Virus record (IMG/VR): IMGVR_UViG_3300009446_000004
DNA: 64,000 nucleotides
Source of the DNA: a virus
Direction: 5' to 3' (one strand)
Shown here: one piece after another, positions 21,561 through 40,887 of the stretch
Layout of the letters: each line of letters opens with the position of its first letter
Position numbering within the stretch: the first letter of the stretch is position 1
Notes under the pieces: model-generated
The model's database searches: none
Seen by the model: the letters and a program-made list of their open reading frames with translations, nothing else
Told to the model about the DNA's origin: nothing
Program-made: the position numbers and the translations under genes

Positions 21561-23132
21561 ATGATTTGGACTCCCAGACCCTACCAAAAGAAATTTAAGA
21601 CTGATATTTATCAAGCCCTGCGACAGCATAACGGAGTGATGGGTCAAATGCCCACAGGCGGCGGCAAGACCATTGTAATGAGTGATATCTGTTACGATGC
21701 CCACAGAGCTAATAGGCCAGTATTGATCATCGCACATCGAAAAGAATTGATAACACAGGCACAAGATAAGATATCAAAGGCAGCTGGAATTGATACGGGG
21801 ATCATCATGGGAGACCATAGAATGAACTTAGATATACCTATCCAAGTTTGCAGCATTCAGACAATCAACAGCAGGCTGAACAAAATGGCTGATTACTTGA
21901 CTAGGTTTAAGTTGGTCATTGTTGATGAGGCCCACCATATCAAGGCAAGCACGTACATGAGCACCATTGATGCCTGTACAAATGCTAAAGTATTGGGCCT
22001 TACTGCCACACCTTGGAGGTCTTCAGGCGAAGGGTTTAAGGAGATCACTCAAACAATGATACAAGGCCCTAGCGTTAAATGGTTGGAGGCAAACGGCTAC
22101 TTAGTTCCTGCTAGAAAATTTCAGGTGCCTTTGGATCCAGAGGAAATGAAGGGATGGAGGGTCTACGGTGAAAAATACCGCGACGCCGATATGATGGAAT
22201 TAATGGGCCGGGATGACATCATGTCAGACATAGTGGGTAGTTGGAAGTTACACGCACAAGGCAGACAAACAGTAACCTTTGCCGTTAATATTGCACATAG
22301 CAAGAAGATTGTGGAGATGTATCAGGACCACGGTATATCAGCGGCCCATTTGGACGGCAACACAAACAAGTACGACAGGGACAAGATACTAATCGGACTA
22401 GAGAACGGAAAAGTGACTGTGTTATCTAATTGTGGCATAGTAGGTGAAGGTGTTGATGTTCCTGTTTTAGGAGTTGTCCAAATTGCTAGGCCAGTTTTTT
22501 CACTTGCCTTATTTTTACAAATGTGCGGTAGAGGTAGCAGAACGGCAAAAGGGAAAGAGGACTATATCTTGCTAGATCATGGAAATAATTTGATCACTCA
22601 TGGGTTCCCCAATAGAGATCACAAGTGGACCATCGAGGATAGAAAAAAACGCAAAAAAAACGAAATCGAAGTTGATGAAGATGGTCAAATATTAGAGGTC
22701 AAATTACAGGACGAGCAGGGCCGATTGTTTGATCCTGTAAAGTTTAAAGAATCAATCCCAGGGATGACACTCGTGGAGGTAACAAGAGACCACAGCGAAA
22801 TGGTGATTAAGAAGATAGCAAGGGAGATAAGGGAAAAGAATTGGAAACCCTACAGCATATGGCATCAGTTCAAAGACTGGTTGATAGAAAAAGAAGACAG
22901 CAGAGATCCTACAACTAAGGAATTAAAATTGGTTGAAGCGGAAATAAACAAGGGATTGCCAGCAGAGAATAAGATAAAACAACGTTGGCGGTCACACCGT
23001 ATATCAGAAATGCAAGACATACGCAACGGAGTTAAGCCAAAATCACACAGCAATAAAATTGTACTAGATGGAATCAGAAAGGGCATACGATCGAGAAGCA
23101 ATAGCAGCAGCTATCAAGGCAAAAGATATTGA
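21561..23132 (+). CDS. superfamily II DEAD/DEAH helicase
   Basis: MPTGGGKT, VDEAHH, GLTATP, GEGVDVP, QMCGRGSR. Confidence 0.9.
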   Translation: MIWTPRPYQKKFKTDIYQALRQHNGVMGQMPTGGGKTIVMSDICYDAHRANRPVLIIAHRKELITQAQDKISKAAGIDTGIIMGDHRMNLDIPIQVCSIQTINSRLNKMADYLTRFKLVIVDEAHHIKASTYMSTIDACTNAKVLGLTATPWRSSGEGFKEITQTMIQGPSVKWLEANGYLVPARKFQVPLDPEEMKGWRVYGEKYRDADMMELMGRDDIMSDIVGSWKLHAQGRQTVTFAVNIAHSKKIVEMYQDHGISAAHLDGNTNKYDRDKILIGLENGKVTVLSNCGIVGEGVDVPVLGVVQIARPVFSLALFLQMCGRGSRTAKGKEDYILLDHGNNLITHGFPNRDHKWTIEDRKKRKKNEIEVDEDGQILEVKLQDEQGRLFDPVKFKESIPGMTLVEVTRDHSEMVIKKIAREIREKNWKPYSIWHQFKDWLIEKEDSRDPTTKELKLVEAEINKGLPAENKIKQRWRSHRISEMQDIRNGVKPKSHSNKIVLDGIRKGIRSRSNSSSYQGKRY

Positions 23133-23586
23133 TGCTATACTGGAACTCAAAATGCCTTGTGGCGAATCAGCCTACATTCAACACCTGTTTAGGGTAGATT
23201 GGGTGAGCCCTGTTATCCCTTGGACAGACAAAGCAGGTAGCATGTCTATCAGATCAAGAGACAAACTGCTAAAAAAACTGAAAAGGATACTACCAGCGCC
23301 AAACAAATACCTGAATCACAAACGGATCTTTATAACAGTAAAAACACCAAAGGGATCGATCACAAGGAACTACGTAATCGATCAATATTACAACATAATG
23401 GACGGATGGCTTGGCGATGATGGGTATCCAAGATGTGCCAAAGAGGACTACTTTGACTTAGTAAAAAAATACGGAAAGGAAAACGTATCAACTAAATCCG
23501 AACCATACCGCAGGGATGACGGATATCCGGAGAGCTGGGGACGGGATATTAGAATATTCAAAAAAGACAAAGATAAAGACAAATAG
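23068..23586 (+). CDS. hypothetical protein
   Basis: 172-aa ORF; start uncertain. Confidence 0.55.
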   Translation: MESERAYDREAIAAAIKAKDIDAILELKMPCGESAYIQHLFRVDWVSPVIPWTDKAGSMSIRSRDKLLKKLKRILPAPNKYLNHKRIFITVKTPKGSITRNYVIDQYYNIMDGWLGDDGYPRCAKEDYFDLVKKYGKENVSTKSEPYRRDDGYPESWGRDIRIFKKDKDKDK

Positions 23587-31145: not shown

Positions 31146-31646
31146 GTGATTTTTATGGCAAAATCTAGGATAGACAACTTAGGAGTAAATAAAGGATCTA
31201 ATGGTTTAGATAAGAACCCAGCAAACATAAACAGGAAAGGGCCATTAAGAATACCTAGCATTAACAATGCCGTCAAAACTGTTGCTGGTGGCAATGGGGT
31301 GATATTTATAGGCAATAATCTGATCACAGAGAGGACAGGGGATGGCGTTTACATACAACTAGCAAGCGATGAGGCGTTGGCTGTAAAGATGTTTCAAATA
31401 GCACTAGAAGGCAATGACAGAGATTCTTTAAGGGCTATAGCGAAGATCAAAGAAAGCCTAGAAAGTGAAACATTGCCAACTACGCCTGTTAATAACACTA
31501 TAGAGATAGGCGTAAATTCATCTACTATAGAAAGGATCGAAGCACTAAAAGAGATACGTAAAAAAATAAATGCAGACATCAGAAGACTACAATCAGCAGT
31601 CCGAATGGATAATGCAGACTCAAATAGCAAGCCAAGCAAAAAGTAA
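31146..31646 (+). CDS. terminase small subunit (probable)
   Basis: GLDKNPANINRKGP N-terminal motif; lies directly upstream of TerL. Confidence 0.65.
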   Translation: MIFMAKSRIDNLGVNKGSNGLDKNPANINRKGPLRIPSINNAVKTVAGGNGVIFIGNNLITERTGDGVYIQLASDEALAVKMFQIALEGNDRDSLRAIAKIKESLESETLPTTPVNNTIEIGVNSSTIERIEALKEIRKKINADIRRLQSAVRMDNADSNSKPSKK

Positions 31647-33627
31647 GCTACTAGCATTTACAAAACACACCAAGCCAGACTATAAATCAAACTGGCATCA
31701 TGAACATCTATGTGAGGTACTAGATGATTTCCTTGCTGGCAAAATAAAGAGGCTCATTATCACAATGGGACCTCAGCATGGGAAGTCAGAACTAGGAACG
31801 CGCCGCTTGTTATCCATGGCTCTAGGATTGAACCCTGATCTGAAGATTGCCGGAATATCCTACAGTCCAGAGCTTGCAAGGGAATTTAACCGAGATGTCT
31901 CCAGTATTATAAACAGTCCTGAGTATCAAGAGTTATTCCCTGAGACTGTTATCCCGGGTCCTGGAAGGGATGCAAGAGGTAACAGAAAATCCAATAGATC
32001 TGATAAATTTCAGATAGTCAACCACACAGGAAGTTATCAATCCATCGGTACAGGCGGTGGTATATCTGGAAAGACAGTTGACCTGCTTTGTATTGATGAT
32101 CCGATCAAGGGCCACGCCAATGCCAAGAGCAAAGCCAAAAGAGACGCTATATGGAACAGCTATATAGACGAATGGAGAACAAGGCTGCACAATGACGCGC
32201 AGCAAATCATAATGACCACCAGGTGGCACGATGATGATCTAGTAGGTCGAATCCTAAAAGCCAAAGAGGAGGGCACCTTGAATGAGGAATGGACGGTTAT
32301 CAATTACCCAACCATCAAGGAATATGATAATGATGATCCAGAACCACACCAATCACAAAGAGACATAGGAGAGGTCCTTTGGCCTGAACGTCACAGCGAG
32401 CAAAGTATCTACAATGCTAGAAACCTTAATCCTCAATCATTCAATTGTCTACACCAAGGAAGACCAACACAAGCAGAGGGCGAAACTGTAAAGCGCGAAT
32501 GGATAGGCACGTTCAACATGCAAGACCTGCCAGATAGTGTTGTATGGAATACATTCGTAGATGGAGCATTCACGGAAAAGACGTACAACGACCCATCGGG
32601 GCTTGTGGCGTGGTGTTATCATGCTGGGGACTGGTATATCAGGGATGCCAATATAAACCTGCGTAAAGGGACCCACGCGCTTGCAAACAATGTGTTTTCT
32701 TTTGCCAAATCAAATGGAGTTGATTACAGGGGCGTGATAGGAGTGGAGCCAAAAGCATCAGGACAATCGTTGATCGATGTAATGCAAAACCGATTTGCCG
32801 ACTCAGGGATCAAGGTAATGGCGTTTGCTCCTCCACAGAATAACAAAGAGATAGAGCTTGGTGAGGTGATTCACATATTGAGAGCTGGCAGGGTAAAGGT
32901 CTTAGATGGCGCGGCCTGGGTACCGGGATTCATGGACCAGCTGTGTAGCTTCCCGCAAGTAAAGCACGATGAGTCGGTGGACTGTATTATAAACATGATC
33001 AAACACGAAGCTACTAGCATGGAAAGTAACAGGTATTGTGATGGATTTTTTATTCAGGAAAGTGATATGCAAATCACTCAGCCGGAACTCCATTTGAGCT
33101 TCCAGTCATTACATAACGGATATGCAAACCTACTGGTAAGCGAGATCACAGACACAGAGGTGCGAGTTCTAAGGCATTTTGTAATAGGCAACGTGGCAAA
33201 CCCATTAAAGGAACTATGTCAAGAGTTCACGCTATGGGTGGCATCTCAGGATGTGAAACCCAAGTCAGTAGTAGGGTATTTGAGGCCGCTGAAGACAGCT
33301 AGGAGCATACAGGTTTTTTATAGGGATGCTGGATCTATTGAGGCAGAGCTGGAAAACTATTTTAGCTACGATTCTATGTGTATGGGCCTTTTTAAGGAAA
33401 GCAGAGTATTCCGACGAATGGCATCTAAGATAATGGAGGGCCAATCAGAGGTCAAGGTAAGAGTCGATACAAGCTGTGTAGAATTGATATCAGATCACCA
33501 GCACACAAAGGCAGACAGCGAAGGAAACAAGATCAGAGGCGACGGCAATGAAGGTTCACCAACGGACTGCCTATGGAGCAATTTTATATCCGTCTACTTT
33601 GAGGAATTGTTTATTGAGCGCGATTAA
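31570..33627 (+). CDS. terL: terminase large subunit with an extra C-terminal domain
   Basis: MGPQHGKSEL, LCIDDPIK, MTTRWHDDDL, nuclease VDGA...ND...VEPKASG...KHDESVD, then about 200 further residues. Confidence 0.92.
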   Translation: MQTSEDYNQQSEWIMQTQIASQAKSKLLAFTKHTKPDYKSNWHHEHLCEVLDDFLAGKIKRLIITMGPQHGKSELGTRRLLSMALGLNPDLKIAGISYSPELAREFNRDVSSIINSPEYQELFPETVIPGPGRDARGNRKSNRSDKFQIVNHTGSYQSIGTGGGISGKTVDLLCIDDPIKGHANAKSKAKRDAIWNSYIDEWRTRLHNDAQQIIMTTRWHDDDLVGRILKAKEEGTLNEEWTVINYPTIKEYDNDDPEPHQSQRDIGEVLWPERHSEQSIYNARNLNPQSFNCLHQGRPTQAEGETVKREWIGTFNMQDLPDSVVWNTFVDGAFTEKTYNDPSGLVAWCYHAGDWYIRDANINLRKGTHALANNVFSFAKSNGVDYRGVIGVEPKASGQSLIDVMQNRFADSGIKVMAFAPPQNNKEIELGEVIHILRAGRVKVLDGAAWVPGFMDQLCSFPQVKHDESVDCIINMIKHEATSMESNRYCDGFFIQESDMQITQPELHLSFQSLHNGYANLLVSEITDTEVRVLRHFVIGNVANPLKELCQEFTLWVASQDVKPKSVVGYLRPLKTARSIQVFYRDAGSIEAELENYFSYDSMCMGLFKESRVFRRMASKIMEGQSEVKVRVDTSCVELISDHQHTKADSEGNKIRGDGNEGSPTDCLWSNFISVYFEELFIERD

Positions 33628-33839
33628 CTAGCGTTATATTTGCGTGATTGAAACGGAATACATATATTTGCACCACTTCAGAGTGGTGTTTTGGGTGCAC
33701 TATTCATCTCTTTAAGGGCTGGGTCCCGCCCCAACGTTTCCCAGCCCTTTATTCAAAACTAAACGGGCCTCCACGGCCCTTTGCTTAATGGTGGGATTAC
33801 GGTTGCTGGCTTTCGGGTCAGCAACCAATACACCAAAAT

Positions 33840-33912
33840 GCGATCGTAGCTCAGTTGGTAGAGCATCTCCCTTTTAAGGAGAGGGTCCAGGGTTCGAGCC
33901 CCTGCGATTGTA
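33840..33912 (+). tRNA. tRNA-Lys(TTT)
   Basis: GCGATCG/CGATTGT acceptor, GCTC/GAGC D-stem, TCTCC-CTTTTAA-GGAGA anticodon arm, CAGGG-TTCGAGC-CCCTG T-arm; CCA not encoded. Confidence 0.93.
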
Positions 33913-33920
33913 CAAATGAA

Positions 33921-34005
33921 GATCAGGCAAGGGAATAGCTGAAATCAGGCGCTTTGATTGCTATGTTAAAGAGGCTAAGTTGCCAGCCTTTCTATCTGTC
34001 TGATC
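33921..34005 (+). ncRNA. unidentified structured RNA (three-way junction)
   Basis: 9-bp closing stem GATCAGGCA/TGTCTGATC with two internal hairpins (ATAGC..AATCA/TGATT..GCTAT; AGGCT/AGCCT). Confidence 0.4.
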
Positions 34006-34010
34006 AATTT

Positions 34011-34099
34011 TCCAGAGTTCCAAGGAAAGGGCTTGGGGTGTATCGATAGGTACATTGAGTAAAACAAAACTCACGCGGGGGCGGATCCCGCATCTGGAG
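34011..34099 (+). ncRNA. non-canonical tRNA-like cloverleaf with a long variable arm
   Basis: TCCAGA/TCTGGA closing stem plus four hairpins in tRNA order; T-like loop GGCGGAT and an 8-nt anticodon-position loop. Confidence 0.5.
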
Positions 34100-34106
34100 C
34101 AAATTC

Positions 34107-34190
34107 GGTAGGATACCAAAGCGGTCAAATGGACTAGACTGTAAATCTAGTGGCTCCGGCCTTCGGCGGGTTCGAATCCCTCTCCTACCA
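34107..34190 (+). tRNA. tRNA-Tyr(GTA)
   Basis: GGTAGGA/TCCTACC acceptor, CTAGA-CTGTAAA-TCTAG anticodon arm, long variable loop, TTCGAAT T-loop. Confidence 0.93.
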
Positions 34191-34208
34191 CTCACATAAT
34201 AAATCACT

Positions 34209-34520
34209 ATGATTGCCCAACTTGTAAAGGGACTCAGAGAACAAAAGGGATGGACCACAGCAGAGCTGGCAGAGAAAACCGGTATCGATATTGCATGGCA
34301 TCAAGAACTAGAGGCGCAAGGGATAGAAGTGGACAGCAGGAACATTACCAAGCTATCAGGTGTCTTTGAAATTCCGGTATCTTTTTTTACTATGATGGCG
34401 CTTGACAAAGACTCCGTAGCACCAGAAAAAAGACAGGCATTTGCCGACTTAGAAACACCATTGAAAACCCTATTGGTAGAAACAGCGAAACTAATTTCAG
34501 AAAATGGAATGGATAATTAA
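34209..34520 (+). CDS. XRE-family HTH transcriptional regulator
   Basis: LREQKGWTTAELAEKTGI...ELE...ITKLSGVFEIPVSFF. Confidence 0.8.
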   Translation: MIAQLVKGLREQKGWTTAELAEKTGIDIAWHQELEAQGIEVDSRNITKLSGVFEIPVSFFTMMALDKDSVAPEKRQAFADLETPLKTLLVETAKLISENGMDN

Positions 34521-34731
34521 TAGACTAAAAAGAGAAATCGAATCTCTAACAATAGAAAATGCCATAATGATTGGTGTTGTCTTCGGTTTATTGATCGATA
34601 TATTTGTTAACACATAAACACCGCTAAATGAAAATGCCAAAATTAGACGCAGATAAGGCCTTTATTATCTTCGTAATTTTAATGTGCCTTTGGGCGAGAT
34701 CACAAGGCGAAACACCACAAAACTTAGACAC

Positions 34732-35121
34732 ATGTCAAAATCAGAATCAGAATCAGGATCAGGTGGAAGCATATATATTGTCGTTATGCTTGCCATTGGG
34801 TTTGCCTTATCACAAAACAACTTTGACCTTGAGAGAGGGGTGGGAGCGTTCACAAAGGACGCAATCAAGGAAACCAAAGCAAATGTTTTGGAAAGAAACG
34901 AGGCAGCAGCAAACGCGGCTCCGGGCATTTTCCAAAACATCAGCAATGCGACGGGCAAGATATTACATGATCGACAGTTGGCAAAGGACAAAGATGCTGA
35001 ATTGGCAAGGGTAGCAGCTGACGCGATCAGTAACCATCTTTCAAACCAGAACACAGAAAGGCCAACACTTACCAAAACGCAGACCAGGCAATACAATCAG
35101 CGCACAAGAATCGGGCCCTAA
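34732..35121 (+). CDS. single-TM membrane protein
   Basis: Start ATG 34732 after ACACCAC (34712); SESESGSGG linker, then IYIVVMLAIGFAL. Confidence 0.55.
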   Translation: MSKSESESGSGGSIYIVVMLAIGFALSQNNFDLERGVGAFTKDAIKETKANVLERNEAAANAAPGIFQNISNATGKILHDRQLAKDKDAELARVAADAISNHLSNQNTERPTLTKTQTRQYNQRTRIGP

Positions 35122-35169
35122 GATGAAAACAGCCCACACAGAACAGTAACTTTTCATTTGACAGATTTC

Positions 35170-35201
35170 CCGCTGCTGGCTTAGGTCGGCGGCGGTTTTT
35201 T
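35170..35201 (+). terminator. rho-independent terminator
   Basis: CCGCTGCTGGC-TTAG-GTCGGCGGCGG followed by T6. Confidence 0.7.
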
Positions 35202-35213
35202 AAAACTTGAACT

Positions 35214-35717
35214 ATGACACTAAGAGAGCAATACGACGCAGAGCGCCCGACCGAACAGGGCCGATACGACTTGACCAATCAAGGTTATGTTGAATGGCTG
35301 GAAGCTAGGGCGAAGGGTTGGATAAGGATATCCGACAACCCGCCTGAGCCGAACAAAACGGTCTGGTTGGCTAGTGAAACTTGGGCTGTCATAGGCTGCA
35401 AACATGTGGTACCTGAAGGGGGCTGGCAATGGGCCGTATCTAATGGGCTAATGTACAGTGAAGGGAGTAAGATAGTGGCTGAATGTGAGGCCGATGATGT
35501 TGAACCGATTTACTGGCATGAGATACCAGAATTGCCACGAATCAAAGCAGCCCGCCAACAAGGGGCTCTACCGGGCAAGAGCGGTAAGGCATATCAGTAC
35601 GAAAAACTTGCAGCCGATAGTGTTACCGGGCCTAACAAAAAAATGCTCAATAGTTTTTGCCAACAGATTAAGGGTTTTGAATTGAAATACTCCAGTGACG
35701 TAATTGGCGAAATATGA
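35214..35717 (+). CDS. DUF551-like phage protein
   Basis: GWIRISDNPPE...V...PIYWHEIPELP. Confidence 0.6.
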   Translation: MTLREQYDAERPTEQGRYDLTNQGYVEWLEARAKGWIRISDNPPEPNKTVWLASETWAVIGCKHVVPEGGWQWAVSNGLMYSEGSKIVAECEADDVEPIYWHEIPELPRIKAARQQGALPGKSGKAYQYEKLAADSVTGPNKKMLNSFCQQIKGFELKYSSDVIGEI

Positions 35718-35926
35718 GCGAGGTCATACAAGGATTATTCCCTCTGCCAATCACCTACCATAAGCCTATTGAGGTCTATGCAATAGCCACCGAAATAAGA
35801 ACCGGCTACGATGTGGAGATAGAATATGTGGGAGAAACACACGTCATATACAGGAGACAAGGAGCAAACGTACTAGAAAGCACAAGCCTGTATCATTTCA
35901 AAAGACTATTCAAAGAACATGGCTAA
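35714..35926 (+). CDS. hypothetical protein
   Basis: 70-aa coupled ORF. Confidence 0.5.
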   Translation: MSEVIQGLFPLPITYHKPIEVYAIATEIRTGYDVEIEYVGETHVIYRRQGANVLESTSLYHFKRLFKEHG

Positions 35927-36317
35927 AAGGAAAATAGACAAGCACGAAGTAATCAAAAAGGTACTCAGTGGAGATAGCCAGAAATCCACTGCAAAAGCTT
36001 ATGGCGTATCAGAATCCACGCTATCAAGGTGGATGAAGCTATACAGATTACACGGTCAAAAGGTGTTCAAGGTAGAACGGAGAGGAGCTAAATCAAAGCT
36101 AAAAGAAGCGCAAAAGCTAACGCTGGTCAGAGCACACAAGGAAAGCCCGTTTCCCAATGGCAATGCAATGATCAATTATGTCCATGAGTGCTTTGGTGTT
36201 ACCTACTCAGCCAGGGGGATAGATTACCTAGCAAAATCAATAGGTATAGAGTTCAAAGGTAAATTGCCATCATTTCATCAGATAGAAATATCAACCAATA
36301 AAGAAGACCTGATATGA
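35919..36317 (+). CDS. double-HTH protein resembling the IS630 N-terminus, no DDE domain
   Basis: SQKSTAKAYGVSESTLSRWMKLYRLHG...RGAKSKL...ECFGVTYSARGIDYL. Confidence 0.65.
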   Translation: MAKRKIDKHEVIKKVLSGDSQKSTAKAYGVSESTLSRWMKLYRLHGQKVFKVERRGAKSKLKEAQKLTLVRAHKESPFPNGNAMINYVHECFGVTYSARGIDYLAKSIGIEFKGKLPSFHQIEISTNKEDLI

Positions 36318-36871
36318 AAAAAGATTACGTAATAATACTAAAGACAGGACAGGTGCTTTACGTGCCAGAAATTGTAGCTGAAGCAATAATGGAGGTAAAG
36401 AACGGCTATCCATCCATAACATTTACAGATCCAGATAATCCCGAAAATCTAGGCCGTATTAGTGATGTAATAGCAAGGCCACCGCAATCACAATACGACT
36501 CAGTAACATACTGTAAAGAAGACGGTAAAGGATTTTCTGTAGTAGTTCAGGACGTAATGGCAGTGATTCCAAAATCATCATTCAGGCCGGAGCTACAACC
36601 TAGAGTAATTAATAATGAAGAAATCAAGAAAGAGAAAGCATTTTTTGAGGCTATTGGGGTAGCGGATAAAACGAAGGGAAACAGTATTGATCTTGAGTGC
36701 TCACCAATGACAAAGGAATCAAACGCAAGGATTCAAGGAGGACATAAGAGGTCTATCCTATTGATAGATAAAGATGGCAATGAACATCCTTTTGATAATG
36801 TTACAATTCACGACCCAAAAGGCAGTGTTTTTGCCCCTATCAAGATAAAATGGGCAGATGAGTGTGAATAA
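36314..36871 (+). CDS. hypothetical protein
   Basis: 185-aa coupled ORF. Confidence 0.55.
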   Translation: MKKDYVIILKTGQVLYVPEIVAEAIMEVKNGYPSITFTDPDNPENLGRISDVIARPPQSQYDSVTYCKEDGKGFSVVVQDVMAVIPKSSFRPELQPRVINNEEIKKEKAFFEAIGVADKTKGNSIDLECSPMTKESNARIQGGHKRSILLIDKDGNEHPFDNVTIHDPKGSVFAPIKIKWADECE

Positions 36872-37370
36872 AACAAAATGGAACGGCAAACTAAAATCAG
36901 GCAAGGTCAGAAAATGGTCATTCAAGGACATAGACAAAGATAAGATCGTAGGGGATACGGGAAGCAATACAGTCATCCAAAAAGCCAAGGCAGATGAAAT
37001 CATAAGATCCTTTAAAAAGGCGTGTAAAGACGCTGGCCTGCCAGTTCCAGAGCATGAGTACATTTACCGAAACTTTCACCCAACGTTCCCAAGGGGCTAT
37101 AAGGGTGACTTTGTATGGCCTGATTTGGGCCTTAGTCTTGAAGTCGATGGAGGTCTAAGAATGCAAGCAGGCGGACACAATACAGCAGCGGGGATTTCAA
37201 GAGATATGCACAAGGGCAACATGGTACAGATGATCCTAAAATGGAAGTTCATACGAGTAGTTCCGGAGCGCCTACATGATCATGGGATATTAATCCTTAG
37301 ATCAGTTGTGGAGGATGATATCAGCATACTAGAGGATTATTTCAAACTAAAAACGGTGTTTGACTTATGA
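36858..37370 (+). CDS. Vsr/DUF559-like PD-(D/E)XK endonuclease
   Basis: PEHEY...FH...GDFVWPD...LEVDGG...GGHN...RDMHK...WKFIRV. Confidence 0.75.
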   Translation: MSVNKTKWNGKLKSGKVRKWSFKDIDKDKIVGDTGSNTVIQKAKADEIIRSFKKACKDAGLPVPEHEYIYRNFHPTFPRGYKGDFVWPDLGLSLEVDGGLRMQAGGHNTAAGISRDMHKGNMVQMILKWKFIRVVPERLHDHGILILRSVVEDDISILEDYFKLKTVFDL

Positions 37371-37442
37371 CATTGGGTGATGAAGAAATACGTCTTGCTC
37401 AAGAACGAACGAAATACAATTTTATAATTTAATAGATAAATC

Positions 37443-38366
37443 ATGGCTAGAAAACCGAAAAAATCAGGACTAACACTTGTCAGGTATCATTTCGAACGCA
37501 AGCAGGAATTACAGAAACAAGCTCAGGATTTCTACAAAGAAACATTAGAACCTCTTGAGTCGCTTATCCAACAGGAGGGCCAAGAGCTTGAAGAGAAGCT
37601 CAAAACCCACAAGGTAAAACCAGAAACCTGGAAGATCATTACTGAGACTAAGAAAAAGATCAAGCGGGCAGAAGCTGATAAGTTCAGAGAACCCCTGCAA
37701 AAGCACTTGAAAGAGTACTTGAAAGAAGTCGCTGACACGATCGGAGACGAACCACTGAAGGAAATAGAGGCCATTGTCAGTAAGATTGCCGAGCTAAAAA
37801 CTGAGTTCGAAAGTGCTCAGAAGGTCGGTCAAAAATTGTCAGACAAGATCCAGGCAGAGGAAAACGGCAGGGTGAAAGCGTTCCAGGAACATGTAGCTGA
37901 CAAGTATTCATACATCGGTAACCTGTGTCAGCTTAAAAGGGGCGTTGTGAAAGACGCTTTATTCCCTGGAGACCCAAAGACGGCGATCATGGCTCAGTAC
38001 GTAGACCGTCCCTGGCAGGTCCCCAATGGTCAGGTTGGCATTATCGCTGGATGGAAGGGCATTTACGTTAGAGCTGTACCAATGGATGAAGCGGGCACTA
38101 TTACAATCGACGCCTTAGCCTACTGCAATAGTGGACAGGCGAGCCCGTTCATGCTGCCTATCGAATGGCTGGAGGAGCACAGATCAGTAGCTGAGGGAAG
38201 GCAAAGGCAAAAGGAAAGAATGGCGGCGGCTAATGTTGCTAAGGAAACGCAAGATAAGGCCGGAAACGCTGTCACCGATGAACCGCCTAAACATTTGAAG
38301 GCAGTCAAATTGCCAGCAAAGAAAGATGCTGAAGCCGTTAAAGAGACGACAGTGGATAAGGAATAA
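37443..38366 (+). CDS. coiled-coil hypothetical protein
   Basis: 307-aa ORF with long charged helices. Confidence 0.6.
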   Translation: MARKPKKSGLTLVRYHFERKQELQKQAQDFYKETLEPLESLIQQEGQELEEKLKTHKVKPETWKIITETKKKIKRAEADKFREPLQKHLKEYLKEVADTIGDEPLKEIEAIVSKIAELKTEFESAQKVGQKLSDKIQAEENGRVKAFQEHVADKYSYIGNLCQLKRGVVKDALFPGDPKTAIMAQYVDRPWQVPNGQVGIIAGWKGIYVRAVPMDEAGTITIDALAYCNSGQASPFMLPIEWLEEHRSVAEGRQRQKERMAAANVAKETQDKAGNAVTDEPPKHLKAVKLPAKKDAEAVKETTVDKE

Positions 38367-38399
38367 AAGCAGTCATTTGATTGCCTTACTTTATTATTA

Positions 38400-38434
38400 A
38401 AAAGGCCGTTGCTTATTTGTGACGGCCTTTTTTT
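38400..38434 (+). terminator. rho-independent terminator
   Basis: AAAAGGCCGT...ACGGCC followed by T7. Confidence 0.7.
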
Positions 38435-38447
38435 GGAAACTAATAGC

Positions 38448-38747
38448 ATGACAATAGAGCAAATCAAAAACACTAGCGAGGGAGGGGCTGTAATGGACCA
38501 GCTAGGAAACGGATTTGTAACAGTGGGACAAATCCATTTAAAAACCAGCGTGGATACTGATATCATACGCGGTATCCTTTATGCCTTAAACGAGGCAGGG
38601 GCCTTGGTAGGCAAAAAGCATGGAATGGGGTACAAGTATCGATTAAACCCTGATAAGATCAATAAGCAGGCAACAAAACAGGTCAAACCACCAAGAACAC
38701 CAAAGGAACAAAGACGTAAAGGCTGGAATCCTATCGTTGACAGGTAA
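38448..38747 (+). CDS. small winged-helix protein upstream of the portal gene
   Basis: VTVGQIHLKT...IIRGILYALNEAG...GYKYRL; likely start ATG 38448. Confidence 0.5.
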   Translation: MTIEQIKNTSEGGAVMDQLGNGFVTVGQIHLKTSVDTDIIRGILYALNEAGALVGKKHGMGYKYRLNPDKINKQATKQVKPPRTPKEQRRKGWNPIVDR

Positions 38748-38787
38748 AAAAGCACCTCTAAACTAATCATTGCCTTATCTTGCAAAC

Positions 38788-40887
38788 ATGACAAGGAATG
38801 AGCAGATCCAAAGGCTAGTTATGTGTGCAGTAGGTGAGAAGTATTTTCACCCGTGGTATGAAAGGTCAGTAACATTGATGCAACAAATATCAATGCTTGC
38901 CAATGCTGAAACTAAATTCAAGCACTTCAAGGAGAATAAGACACTGACAAGCAATTTTACAGGATGCACATATAACCATACGGTCAAAGGAAACTGCACA
39001 CCAGAGACTCCGGACCAGCTACCGCTACTCAAGCAGCACCAAAGGCAAGATGATAATGATTTTATCATATCAGCGAGTCGTGTAAATCCAAGATCACCGG
39101 CCACTATTGGTAAGGTCAACAAGGAATTTGACAGGGTCCGCCAGGTGGGTTACAAATCCAATAGCATAACAGTGCCAGAAGATAAGGCGGAGAGCTATAA
39201 TAACAAATTGCAACGCTATGGACCGTCCACATTTAGTACTTTATCTTTGGAGGAATACTTGTGGGACTTCATCGATGTTAATACAGGCCACAGGGTCAAC
39301 AACGTGCTGATCACAAAGGTGTCTCAAGTAGAAAATGGCGATAGCGTAGAAGTACAAACAAACCCGAAACAATACTCAGCAGATAACGTAGTCTATATTC
39401 CTAGAGACGCAGGCCGCGACCTAGATTTTTGTATAGTCAGGAACGCAGATATCAGGTTAAAAAAGCAGGCCAGAAACACAAAGGAATACATTCACTACAG
39501 CTTTGAGTTATGGATGCCTGAATACTCAGTGCATTGCGAGGAGGTCAAAGACAGTCCAACGGTGGGTGATCTATTAGATTTTGATTTCGAACCATTCCTA
39601 GATAATACGGGTGAAGATGCAGTTGGTGATGATATTGTTACTTTCAATACAGGCAATCAGGAGCTGATTGTATCACACGAAAACAAGACTTTCAAGCTAA
39701 CATTTAGCCGACACAGATCAAAGGTCAATCCAGCTATTAGAATGGGATGCTGGAAGGATCAAGTGCATCGAAAATCAACACTAAGCGGAGAAAATGGTGG
39801 CAAGCTTCATCAATACGAACAATCACCGCTTTACATCCCAGCTTGGTACACTGGCCTTGTTCACATCCTAAATGTCGTCAAAGGTGATTTTGTACACTCG
39901 CAAGCACAAGATGAAAACGCTTATCCAGTTGAAATATGGATGATGCCTAAATGTTTGGGCGAGGATGGTAAAAGGTGTACCAGAAATACAAATGGCATTG
40001 GATTCGATAGGAAGAAAAAACCCAAAGCCGGATACTCATGTAGAGCCTGTCGAGATACTGGTTTCCAGATCCCAGGATCAGCAGCAGGCAAGATTGTAAT
40101 GAAGCTACCAGCTCAGGAAATGATGGGCTTAATGTCGGGCTTTGATGTATCCCAAATCCATACTTCGATCACGAGAGACCACGAATCAATAGCGGCGTGC
40201 TGGGAGTATGTTGAAAGGGAAACAAAGCTATTCCAAGAGTGCGTCCTAGGTACCATCATATCAACAAACGATCAGCTGAACATTACAGCCACTCAGAAGC
40301 TATTGGAGCAGGCAAGTATCAACAATGCCATTGCTCCATTGGCTGATCATATTGTGTGGGCCTACAAAAATATTGCTACGGTCATTGGTTATTACTGTGA
40401 CATTGAGGCCGAAGATATAAGCTTTGATATCCAGTTTTTCGACTCCATGGTGGAGCTTACTGACACCGAAATAGCTCAAATTATAGCAGAGCTGAGAACT
40501 GCAGGTGCACAGCCAGCCGTTATTGCTGCTTATGAGCTTCGAATGTACCAATGTGTATTCTCAGACAATCCAGAGAAACAAGCAGAGCTCCGTATCAGTC
40601 AGCAATTTGATTTTGGTGCTGGAATGGATCTTGATGCGCGGTCATTGGTTGCCTCCCAAGCTTGTTTGCAGAAAAAATACAAGATACGCCTTATGCAATA
40701 CCCGGTGATATGGCGCATGGTTGCACACGAAATGTATTGCGAAGGGAAAAAATTCCTAGACATCAAAGAGGGTCAAGACAGCAAGGCAGAAATAGAGGGA
40801 ATGATTGATAAGTATCTTGATGAAATCATTGCTCCAGAGCCTACAGATGAGTTCGAGCCAAACAGGGAACCCGCCACAGTCGCATGA
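38788..40887 (+). CDS. portal protein (probable)
   Basis: About 700 aa, first gene of the head module. Internal CRAC..TG zinc-finger insert and helical C-terminus with SATQK..EQ, as in Bacteroidota phage portals. Confidence 0.65.
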   Translation: MTRNEQIQRLVMCAVGEKYFHPWYERSVTLMQQISMLANAETKFKHFKENKTLTSNFTGCTYNHTVKGNCTPETPDQLPLLKQHQRQDDNDFIISASRVNPRSPATIGKVNKEFDRVRQVGYKSNSITVPEDKAESYNNKLQRYGPSTFSTLSLEEYLWDFIDVNTGHRVNNVLITKVSQVENGDSVEVQTNPKQYSADNVVYIPRDAGRDLDFCIVRNADIRLKKQARNTKEYIHYSFELWMPEYSVHCEEVKDSPTVGDLLDFDFEPFLDNTGEDAVGDDIVTFNTGNQELIVSHENKTFKLTFSRHRSKVNPAIRMGCWKDQVHRKSTLSGENGGKLHQYEQSPLYIPAWYTGLVHILNVVKGDFVHSQAQDENAYPVEIWMMPKCLGEDGKRCTRNTNGIGFDRKKKPKAGYSCRACRDTGFQIPGSAAGKIVMKLPAQEMMGLMSGFDVSQIHTSITRDHESIAACWEYVERETKLFQECVLGTIISTNDQLNITATQKLLEQASINNAIAPLADHIVWAYKNIATVIGYYCDIEAEDISFDIQFFDSMVELTDTEIAQIIAELRTAGAQPAVIAAYELRMYQCVFSDNPEKQAELRISQQFDFGAGMDLDARSLVASQACLQKKYKIRLMQYPVIWRMVAHEMYCEGKKFLDIKEGQDSKAEIEGMIDKYLDEIIAPEPTDEFEPNREPATVA

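Follow-up and report, generated by a model that had tools for sequence, protein, structure and literature searches.

The window analyzed here, a stretch of 64,000 nucleotides (IMG/VR record IMGVR_UViG_3300009446_000004), belongs to an uncultured tailed phage and contains an array with two canonical tRNA genes, tRNA-Lys and tRNA-Tyr. Between them lies an 89-nt sequence, hereafter the element, in which an initial annotation had recognized the stems of a tRNA combined with altered loops. The question raised by this locus is whether the element is a functional RNA of tRNA shape, a decoding tRNA, the remains of a tRNA gene, an aid to the processing of its neighbours or a fold produced by chance, and what an RNA of this shape could do during infection.

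Organization of the RNA gene array

From approximately 8 kb onward, the genes in the window are located on the plus strand. The array follows the gene of the large terminase subunit (TerL). The closest relatives of this protein among 5.8 billion proteins are about 40% identical to it, none exceeding 42%; the nearest cultured relatives are encoded by Flavobacterium phages (32–37% identity), and an identical TerL is present on one further contig. The gap of 580 nt between the TerL stop and the start of a gene for an HTH protein at 34209 holds a run of hairpins and four RNA units, namely, tRNA-Lys(UUU), a rod-like unit A, the element and tRNA-Tyr(GUA) (Table 1). All four units have the same orientation and are separated by spacers of 8, 5 and 7 nt, similar to those of tRNA gene arrays, and the HTH gene starts 18 nt downstream of tRNA-Tyr(GUA). 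Encoded CCA is absent from the element, as well as from the tRNA-Lys and tRNA-Tyr genes next to it.

Table 1. Features of the RNA gene array and of the arms of the element (window coordinates)
Feature	Position	Strand	Characteristics
TerL (large terminase subunit) gene	31570–33627		Precedes the RNA array
Promoter-like motif of Bacteroidota type, TTTG-N20-TATATTTG	33639–33670	+	Just past the TerL stop, upstream of the RNA array; weak lead
tRNA-Lys(UUU)	33840–33913	+	Canonical, first gene of the array; ARAGORN; Rfam RF00005, 68.8 bits
Unit A	33921–34005	+	85-nt rod-like hairpin with 9-bp terminal stem, non-tRNA; MFE –30.7 kcal/mol, z –3.2
Element	34011–34099	+	89-nt class-II-shaped cloverleaf RNA, discriminator G34099, no encoded CCA; folding and ARAGORN geometry
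Acceptor-type stem, 5' strand	34011–34017	+	6 bp and G·A mismatch at 7–66; pairs with 34092–34098; pair probabilities 0.87–1.0
D-type arm CCAAG-GAAAGGG-CTTGG	34020–34036	+	5-bp stem, 6 bp with U34019·G34037; loop GAAAGGG keeps GG
Anticodon-position arm GTGTA-TCGATAGG-TACAT	34038–34055	+	Predicted sealed: 7-bp stem, GAUA tetraloop; C at position 33
Long variable arm TGAG...CTCA	34056–34073	+	5-bp stem including U34060–A34069; loop of 8 nt, rich in A; C34074 comes next and takes the Y48 position
T-type arm GCGGG-GGCGGAT-CCCGC	34075–34091	+	5-bp G–C stem and G34080·U34086; loop GGCGGAU
Acceptor-type stem, 3' strand	34092–34098	+	Folding
tRNA-Tyr(GUA)	34107–34191	+	Canonical class II, last RNA gene of the array; ARAGORN; Rfam, 50.8 bits

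Four hairpins, two of them terminator-like, occupy the 212-nt stretch that leads from the TerL stop to tRNA-Lys (33628–33839; z-score –4.3). The promoter-like motif TTTG-N20-TATATTTG has 5 matches in the window versus 2.9 expected by chance; since it is not enriched, the match upstream of the array is not proof of transcription. The terminator-like hairpins are located between this motif and tRNA-Lys.

The acceptor stem of tRNA-Lys(UUU) has the wobble pairs G1·U72 and G3·U70 together with A73 in the ARAGORN drawing. The combination of G3·U70 and A73 is the classical identity set of alanyl-tRNA synthetase, and on this sequence basis the tRNA might therefore have a dual Lys/Ala identity, or else an unusually weak acceptor stem.

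Unit A, set off from tRNA-Lys and the element by 8 and 5 nt, respectively, fills a tRNA-sized slot between them. No Rfam family was found for it, the match to mir-31 (E 0.2) being ascribed to chance; a match to Chlorobi-RRM (E 4.2) in the same Rfam search was likewise discarded; a blastn search with the spacer 33914–34106 against 50,697 phage records revealed no homologue of unit A. Its predicted fold is consistent with a second small RNA, which could be freed by tRNA processing.

Between TerL and the large structural gene that comes next (38770–40887) lie the RNA array and an island of small genes of about 5 kb (34209–38747). The island encodes two HTH proteins, and the remaining products belong to no family; a protein of 307 aa (37443–38366) has weak PADLOC matches to the LeoBC (E 5e-6) and ZorA-like (E 5e-4) models. 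Small-gene islands of this kind often carry accessory genes.

Predicted structure of the element

The minimum-energy structure of 34011–34099 obtained with ViennaRNA is a cloverleaf of five arms with an energy of –36.2 kcal/mol, which accounts for 25% of the ensemble, and pair probabilities are near 1 in all helices. All five stems of the initial annotation were recovered in this structure at the coordinates given there. The z-score of the element is –4.66, with none of 200 dinucleotide shuffles being as stable, versus –2.35 and –1.47 for the two true tRNAs beside it.

The closing stem is formed by TCCAGA (34011–34016) and TCTGGA (34093–34098), with the G34017/A34092 mismatch at its base. In local folding, U34010 (position –1) can form a U·G pair with G34099, giving an alternative register of 7 bp. 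The loop in the anticodon position, described initially as 8 nt long, has this length in the tRNA drawing, but is predicted to be closed to a GAUA tetraloop by the pairs U34043·G34050 (P 0.998) and C34044–G34049 (P 0.995); reopening of the sealed loop would cost 5 kcal/mol according to the prediction. The long variable arm with the stem TGAG/CTCA was likewise recovered, although its loop, originally given as 10 nt, is shortened to 8 nt by the additional pair U34060–A34069.

The minus strand folds 10 kcal/mol worse than the plus strand, because four G·U pairs would turn into A·C there. The fold is thus assigned to an RNA read in the sense of the neighbouring tRNAs.

Comparison of the fold with chance expectation

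In a local folding of both strands of the 64 kb (span 100 nt), the element was the most stable closed multibranch structure. Its energy there is –36.7 kcal/mol versus four-hairpin minima of –28.4 to –35.5 kcal/mol in eight shuffled windows; window-wide, energy alone separates the element from shuffled sequence only marginally, and the tRNA geometry is more informative. At the 70% threshold (-ps70), ARAGORN produced 179 calls in the window versus about 172 per shuffled 64 kb, and because shuffled sequence yields so many such calls, the one covering the element is worthless as evidence on its own. Among the 179 relaxed cloverleaves, the element ranks first, with 24 Watson–Crick pairs, 1 G·U pair and one mismatch (tRNA-Tyr and tRNA-Lys follow with 23 and 21 pairs). 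No call with at least 21 Watson–Crick pairs and at most 2 unpaired stem positions was detected in 40 shuffled windows.

A chance fold, or an element acting at the level of DNA (packaging site, attachment site or terminator) in the spacer between the tRNA genes, could be considered in view of the stability reached by closed four-hairpin structures of shuffled sequences, the terminator-like score of the T arm on the minus strand and the location of the locus directly past the terminase gene. This explanation is nevertheless very improbable. The local z-score was not equaled by any shuffle, and the tRNA geometry was unmatched by the calls in the shuffled windows; the place to be explained is the spacer of 193 nt between two tRNA genes rather than 64 kb, and chance is therefore no serious explanation. 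As to the DNA-level readings, the four G·U pairs make the fold strand-specific, which would be needless for a DNA cruciform, a minus-strand gene to be terminated is absent nearby, and a search of 185,579 species genomes for an identical copy of the 3' half of the element found none, and thus no sign of a matching attachment site.

Retained and lost features of tRNA

The arms of the element follow the order of a tRNA cloverleaf, with a 7-position acceptor stem, a 5-bp T stem, D and anticodon arms and standard linkers, and the minimum-energy structure and the ARAGORN drawing agree in this respect. The retained features of tRNA are U8, G26, C48, the pair G53–C61, C56, R57 and the 2-nt linker 8–9; the GG(G) of the D-loop is able to pair with C56 (elbow pair), and a U at position –1 precedes the presumed RNase P site. 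A14, A21 and U33 are missing, position 33 being occupied by C. The T-loop GGCGGAU, compared with the consensus UUCRANY, fits U54-U55-C56-R57-A58 by C56 and R57 only, U54, U55 and A58 each being replaced by G; its likeness to TTCGAAT in 4 of 7 positions, noted initially, was borne out. ARAGORN made no call on the element at the default, 90% and 80% thresholds. Rfam gave no match of the element to the tRNA family RF00005 at the gathering score (29 bits) or, in a search with 221 nt, at E ≤ 10, nor to tRNA-Sec, RF02553 (YrlA) or another family at E ≤ 10.

Substitutions affect approximately 6 of the 10 invariant positions in the loops, but the cloverleaf has kept 25 of its 26 pairs, 24 of them Watson–Crick, which agrees with the intact stems and altered identity loops of the initial annotation. 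Under a model of neutral decay presuming a canonical ancestor and equal, uniform substitution rates, the joint probability of this state is at most 1e-5 at any divergence from a canonical tRNA, and the random decay of an ordinary tRNA, raised at the outset as the opposing case, is thus rejected. This result bears directly on the possibility of a relic, i.e., a drifting dead copy of a formerly functional tRNA or tRNA-like gene. A relic would be in accordance with the rejection by standard tRNA detectors, the loss of several invariant loop bases and the singleton status of the element in every collection searched (see below), but it is an unlikely explanation in view of the decay test, as well as of the stability of the element, which is higher than that of the functional tRNAs beside it. 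The test may be compatible with a functional RNA that had become non-canonical earlier and died only very recently.

Since the stems are intact and the loops altered, unlike in neutral tRNA decay, selection on shape rather than on decoding is the best reading of the modelled structure, as the initial annotation had proposed, from internal evidence only. The structure is taken to be real and looks selected in this model, in a single orphan without relatives to prove conservation.

Capacity for decoding

At the 70% threshold, ARAGORN assigns the element a loop of 8 nt in which gata serves as a four-base anticodon, and decoding tRNAs with 8-nt loops occur naturally, for example, yeast mitochondrial tRNA-Thr(UAG) (PMC7609411). 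Accordingly, a decoding tRNA with an expanded loop could be envisaged, either a quadruplet frameshift suppressor, with GAUA reading UAUC, or an odd triplet reader. This reading is hardly credible: position 33 is C instead of U, the pairs 32–38 and 33–37 seal the loop (P ≥ 0.995), the T-loop is devoid of U54, U55 and A58, no Rfam tRNA match is obtained even at the relaxed E-value, and calls of the -ps70 type arise about as frequently in shuffled sequence.

The 64-kb window contains 55 in-frame TATC sites, of which 3 lead into a long +1 frame; these three represent ordinary overlapping genes, each with its own ATG. No gene requiring a +1 shift at UAUC was found within the window. The predicted sealing of the loop, C33 and the lack of such a gene in the window make decoding by the element unlikely, and the frameshift-type adaptor, one of the roles suggested initially, is not supported.

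The SNF2/ResIII helicase gene (21561–23132) shares the last 65 nt of its 3' end with an ORF of 172 aa (23068–23586), which lies in the +1 frame and starts at an ATG of its own. As a frameshift target this ORF was set aside, since it looks like an ordinary overlapping gene.

Search for homologues and partner genes

A blastn search with the array and spacer against 50,697 phage records revealed matches to the true tRNAs only; the region 33914–34106 gave, at E ≤ 10, 4 chance matches of 24–29 nt in the same records, none of them in T4-like phages. In IMG/VR, searches with an exact 24-mer, a 17-mer of the D arm and a 21-mer of tRNA-Tyr yielded one chance match, located in a coding region, and a pattern of loops plus acceptor yielded one chance match without cloverleaf and without tRNA. 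No relative was detected with a pattern of exact loops and R/Y-degenerate stems in metagenome, genome and viral collections, with a loops-only pattern in metagenomes, or with a pattern of the 3' half in 185,579 genomes. A covariance model (R1), built from the single sequence and its fold, found no relative in the window, in 80 loci of distant TerL relatives and in 50 whole viral records. A tRNA array past TerL is absent from the distant TerL relatives, and the HTH gene downstream of the array gave a match of 22 residues only in the search for relatives. According to these sequence searches, the element is a singleton in all collections searched; both it and its phage are orphans.

PHROGs, Pfam and PADLOC scans of at least 30 proteins of the window, together with one Atlas search, revealed no RNA ligase or CCA enzyme. 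Among the same proteins, no synthetase, aminoacyl-transferase or tRNase/nuclease was found as a candidate partner.

Proposed function of the element

The element is probably, in a reading held with moderate confidence, the gene of a tRNA-shaped, non-decoding small RNA, which would be co-transcribed with tRNA-Lys and tRNA-Tyr, processed by tRNA enzymes and active through its shape. Several points weigh against this model: homologues, and with them any covariation or conservation, are absent from the collections searched; in energy, the element surpasses the extremes of shuffled windows only slightly; the promoter assignment is weak; the acceptor stem has C2–G71, unlike tRNA-Ser; and none of the neighbouring genes scanned has a tRNA-related function that would point to a partner.

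According to the model, the element would be transcribed with tRNA-Lys and tRNA-Tyr in one precursor. RNase P and RNase Z read the acceptor/T stack and the elbow (PMC4919913 for the ruler of RNase P). RNase P would free the 5' end at U34011, preceded by U at position –1; RNase Z or exonucleases would set the 3' end after G34099, and a host enzyme would add CCA, resulting in a stable RNA. [quoted passage not shown] Because the anticodon arm is sealed and the positions of T54, Psi55 and A58 are replaced, the RNA would most likely occupy a host tRNA-binding protein. Candidate partners are enzymes that recognize the tRNA body in tRNA-directed defence or in processing or, alternatively, seryl-tRNA synthetase (SerRS); any single named partner is rated much less probable than the general model. 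Of the roles suggested initially, a decoy for anticodon nucleases or tRNA-sensing defences and an inhibitor of a synthetase would be candidates, and the synthetase role gains some indirect support from G73 and the long variable arm, the identity elements of SerRS (PMC7609411, PMC5389517).

A different use of the tRNA shape is conceivable, in which the element would be a processing or stabilizing module. By attracting RNase P and RNase Z, its shape would fix where unit A ends on the 3' side or would assist the maturation of tRNA-Tyr, the cloverleaf itself being a by-product. Parallels are mascRNA at the 3' end of MALAT1 and the tRNA-like parts of the TMERs of herpesvirus MHV68. Unit A is significantly structured (z –3.2), lies only 5 nt from the element and itself lacks tRNA features by which its ends could be defined, all of which would suit such a module. 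Cutting of the flanking true tRNAs would, however, already free the whole spacer; a minimal acceptor/T minihelix would suffice for RNase P, so that the D arm, the sealed anticodon arm and the variable arm stay unexplained; and there are no homologues showing that unit A and the element travel together. This role is accordingly considered quite unlikely.

With regard to the preferred reading, a small RNA acting through its shape, the neighbouring genes suggest the context of its action. Recent work showed that phage tRNA genes counter host defences which cut tRNAs. Its worked examples are tRNA-Lys and tRNA-Tyr, the two phage tRNAs for which a rescue of infection was demonstrated, against PrrC and PtuAB of retron-Eco7 (PMC11555353). 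By analogy with this rescue, the array plausibly serves counter-defence. The sealed anticodon arm, as modelled, would make the element a poor mimic for nucleases reading the anticodon loop, whose substrate it cannot imitate; any competition by the element would thus be limited to SerRS or to enzymes binding at other sites.

A more specific form of this reading, tentative and unlikely in its details, is an uncleavable, non-decoding look-alike of tRNA-Ser, which would be processed, CCA-tailed and recognized via G73, the variable arm and the elbow. With the replacement tRNA-Lys and tRNA-Tyr at its side, such an RNA could jam a host immune tRNase or sensor that grips the tRNA body; alternatively, it could stay away from the ribosome and carry a seryl group for a non-ribosomal reaction. 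If true, either use would represent a phage counter-defence or cofactor of a new, RNA-based class.

The presence of a third gene in the array, with a tRNA body but no decoding loop, suggests that phages also exploit tRNA shape alone. Should a defence nuclease, a synthetase or a processing enzyme prove to be bound by RNAs whose anticodon arm is sealed, such RNAs would constitute a new type of small RNA effector and a ready-made probe for proteins reading tRNA shape. To our knowledge, the only published precedents are RNAC and RNAD of phage T4, the function of which has been unknown for decades.

Comparison with known RNAs

RNAC and RNAD of T4 (species 1 and 2 RNAs) are the closest published analogues of the element. 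Similar to the element, which lies on the same strand as its tRNAs, they are small RNAs other than tRNAs with genes inside the tRNA cluster of a phage. They differ in having no sequence similarity to the element (blastn, 50,697 phage records). They are also longer, about 120–140 nt, and are not full five-arm cloverleaves. In T4, these RNAs of unknown role are made from the tRNA region, on the same transcripts as the T4 tRNAs (PMC3014915, PMC9697503).

Class II tRNAs (tRNA-Ser, tRNA-Leu and tRNA-Tyr, RF00005) share with the element the cloverleaf order, the 7/5 acceptor/T stack, the long variable arm, a single discriminator base and a same-strand site in an array of tRNA genes. The element is distinguished from them by the T-loop GGCGGAU, the missing A14, A21 and U33 and the 8-nt loop that is predicted to be sealed.

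The substrates of SerRS (tRNA-Ser, tRNA-Sec and allo-tRNA) have the long variable arm, G73 (G34099 in the element) and C11–G24 in common with the element. The 6-bp D stem and the possible extra acceptor pair U34010·G34099 recall tRNA-Sec and allo-tRNA in particular. The acceptor/T configuration of these two RNAs differs from 7/5, being 8/5, 8/4 or 9/3; in the element, the pair U34010·G34099 would result in 7 pairs and the G·A mismatch over a 5-bp T stem and would remove G as the discriminator. Unlike SerRS substrates, the element has C2–G71 and an unusually large A-rich variable loop. In E. coli identity work, tRNA-Ser has G2–C71. SerRS reads the long variable arm and the discriminator G73 (or U73) and ignores the anticodon (PMC7609411, PMC5389517), and tRNA-Sec and allo-tRNAs occur in phage tRNA clusters (PMC5389517). 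However, tRNA-Ser, tRNA-Sec and allo-tRNA are decoding RNAs whose anticodon loop of 7 nt stays open, whereas the element is without a usable anticodon.

YrlA and the related bacterial and phage Y RNAs (RF02553) are, like the element, non-decoding mimics of the tRNA body, with examples in phages, and YrlA is handled by tRNA enzymes (PMC4201824). In YrlA, the tRNA-like domain is circularly permuted, so that the ends of the RNA lie on the side of the anticodon and a loop closes the acceptor, and a stem that binds Ro60 is present (PMC4201824), whereas the element is not permuted: its ends are at the acceptor, and it is the anticodon arm that is closed.
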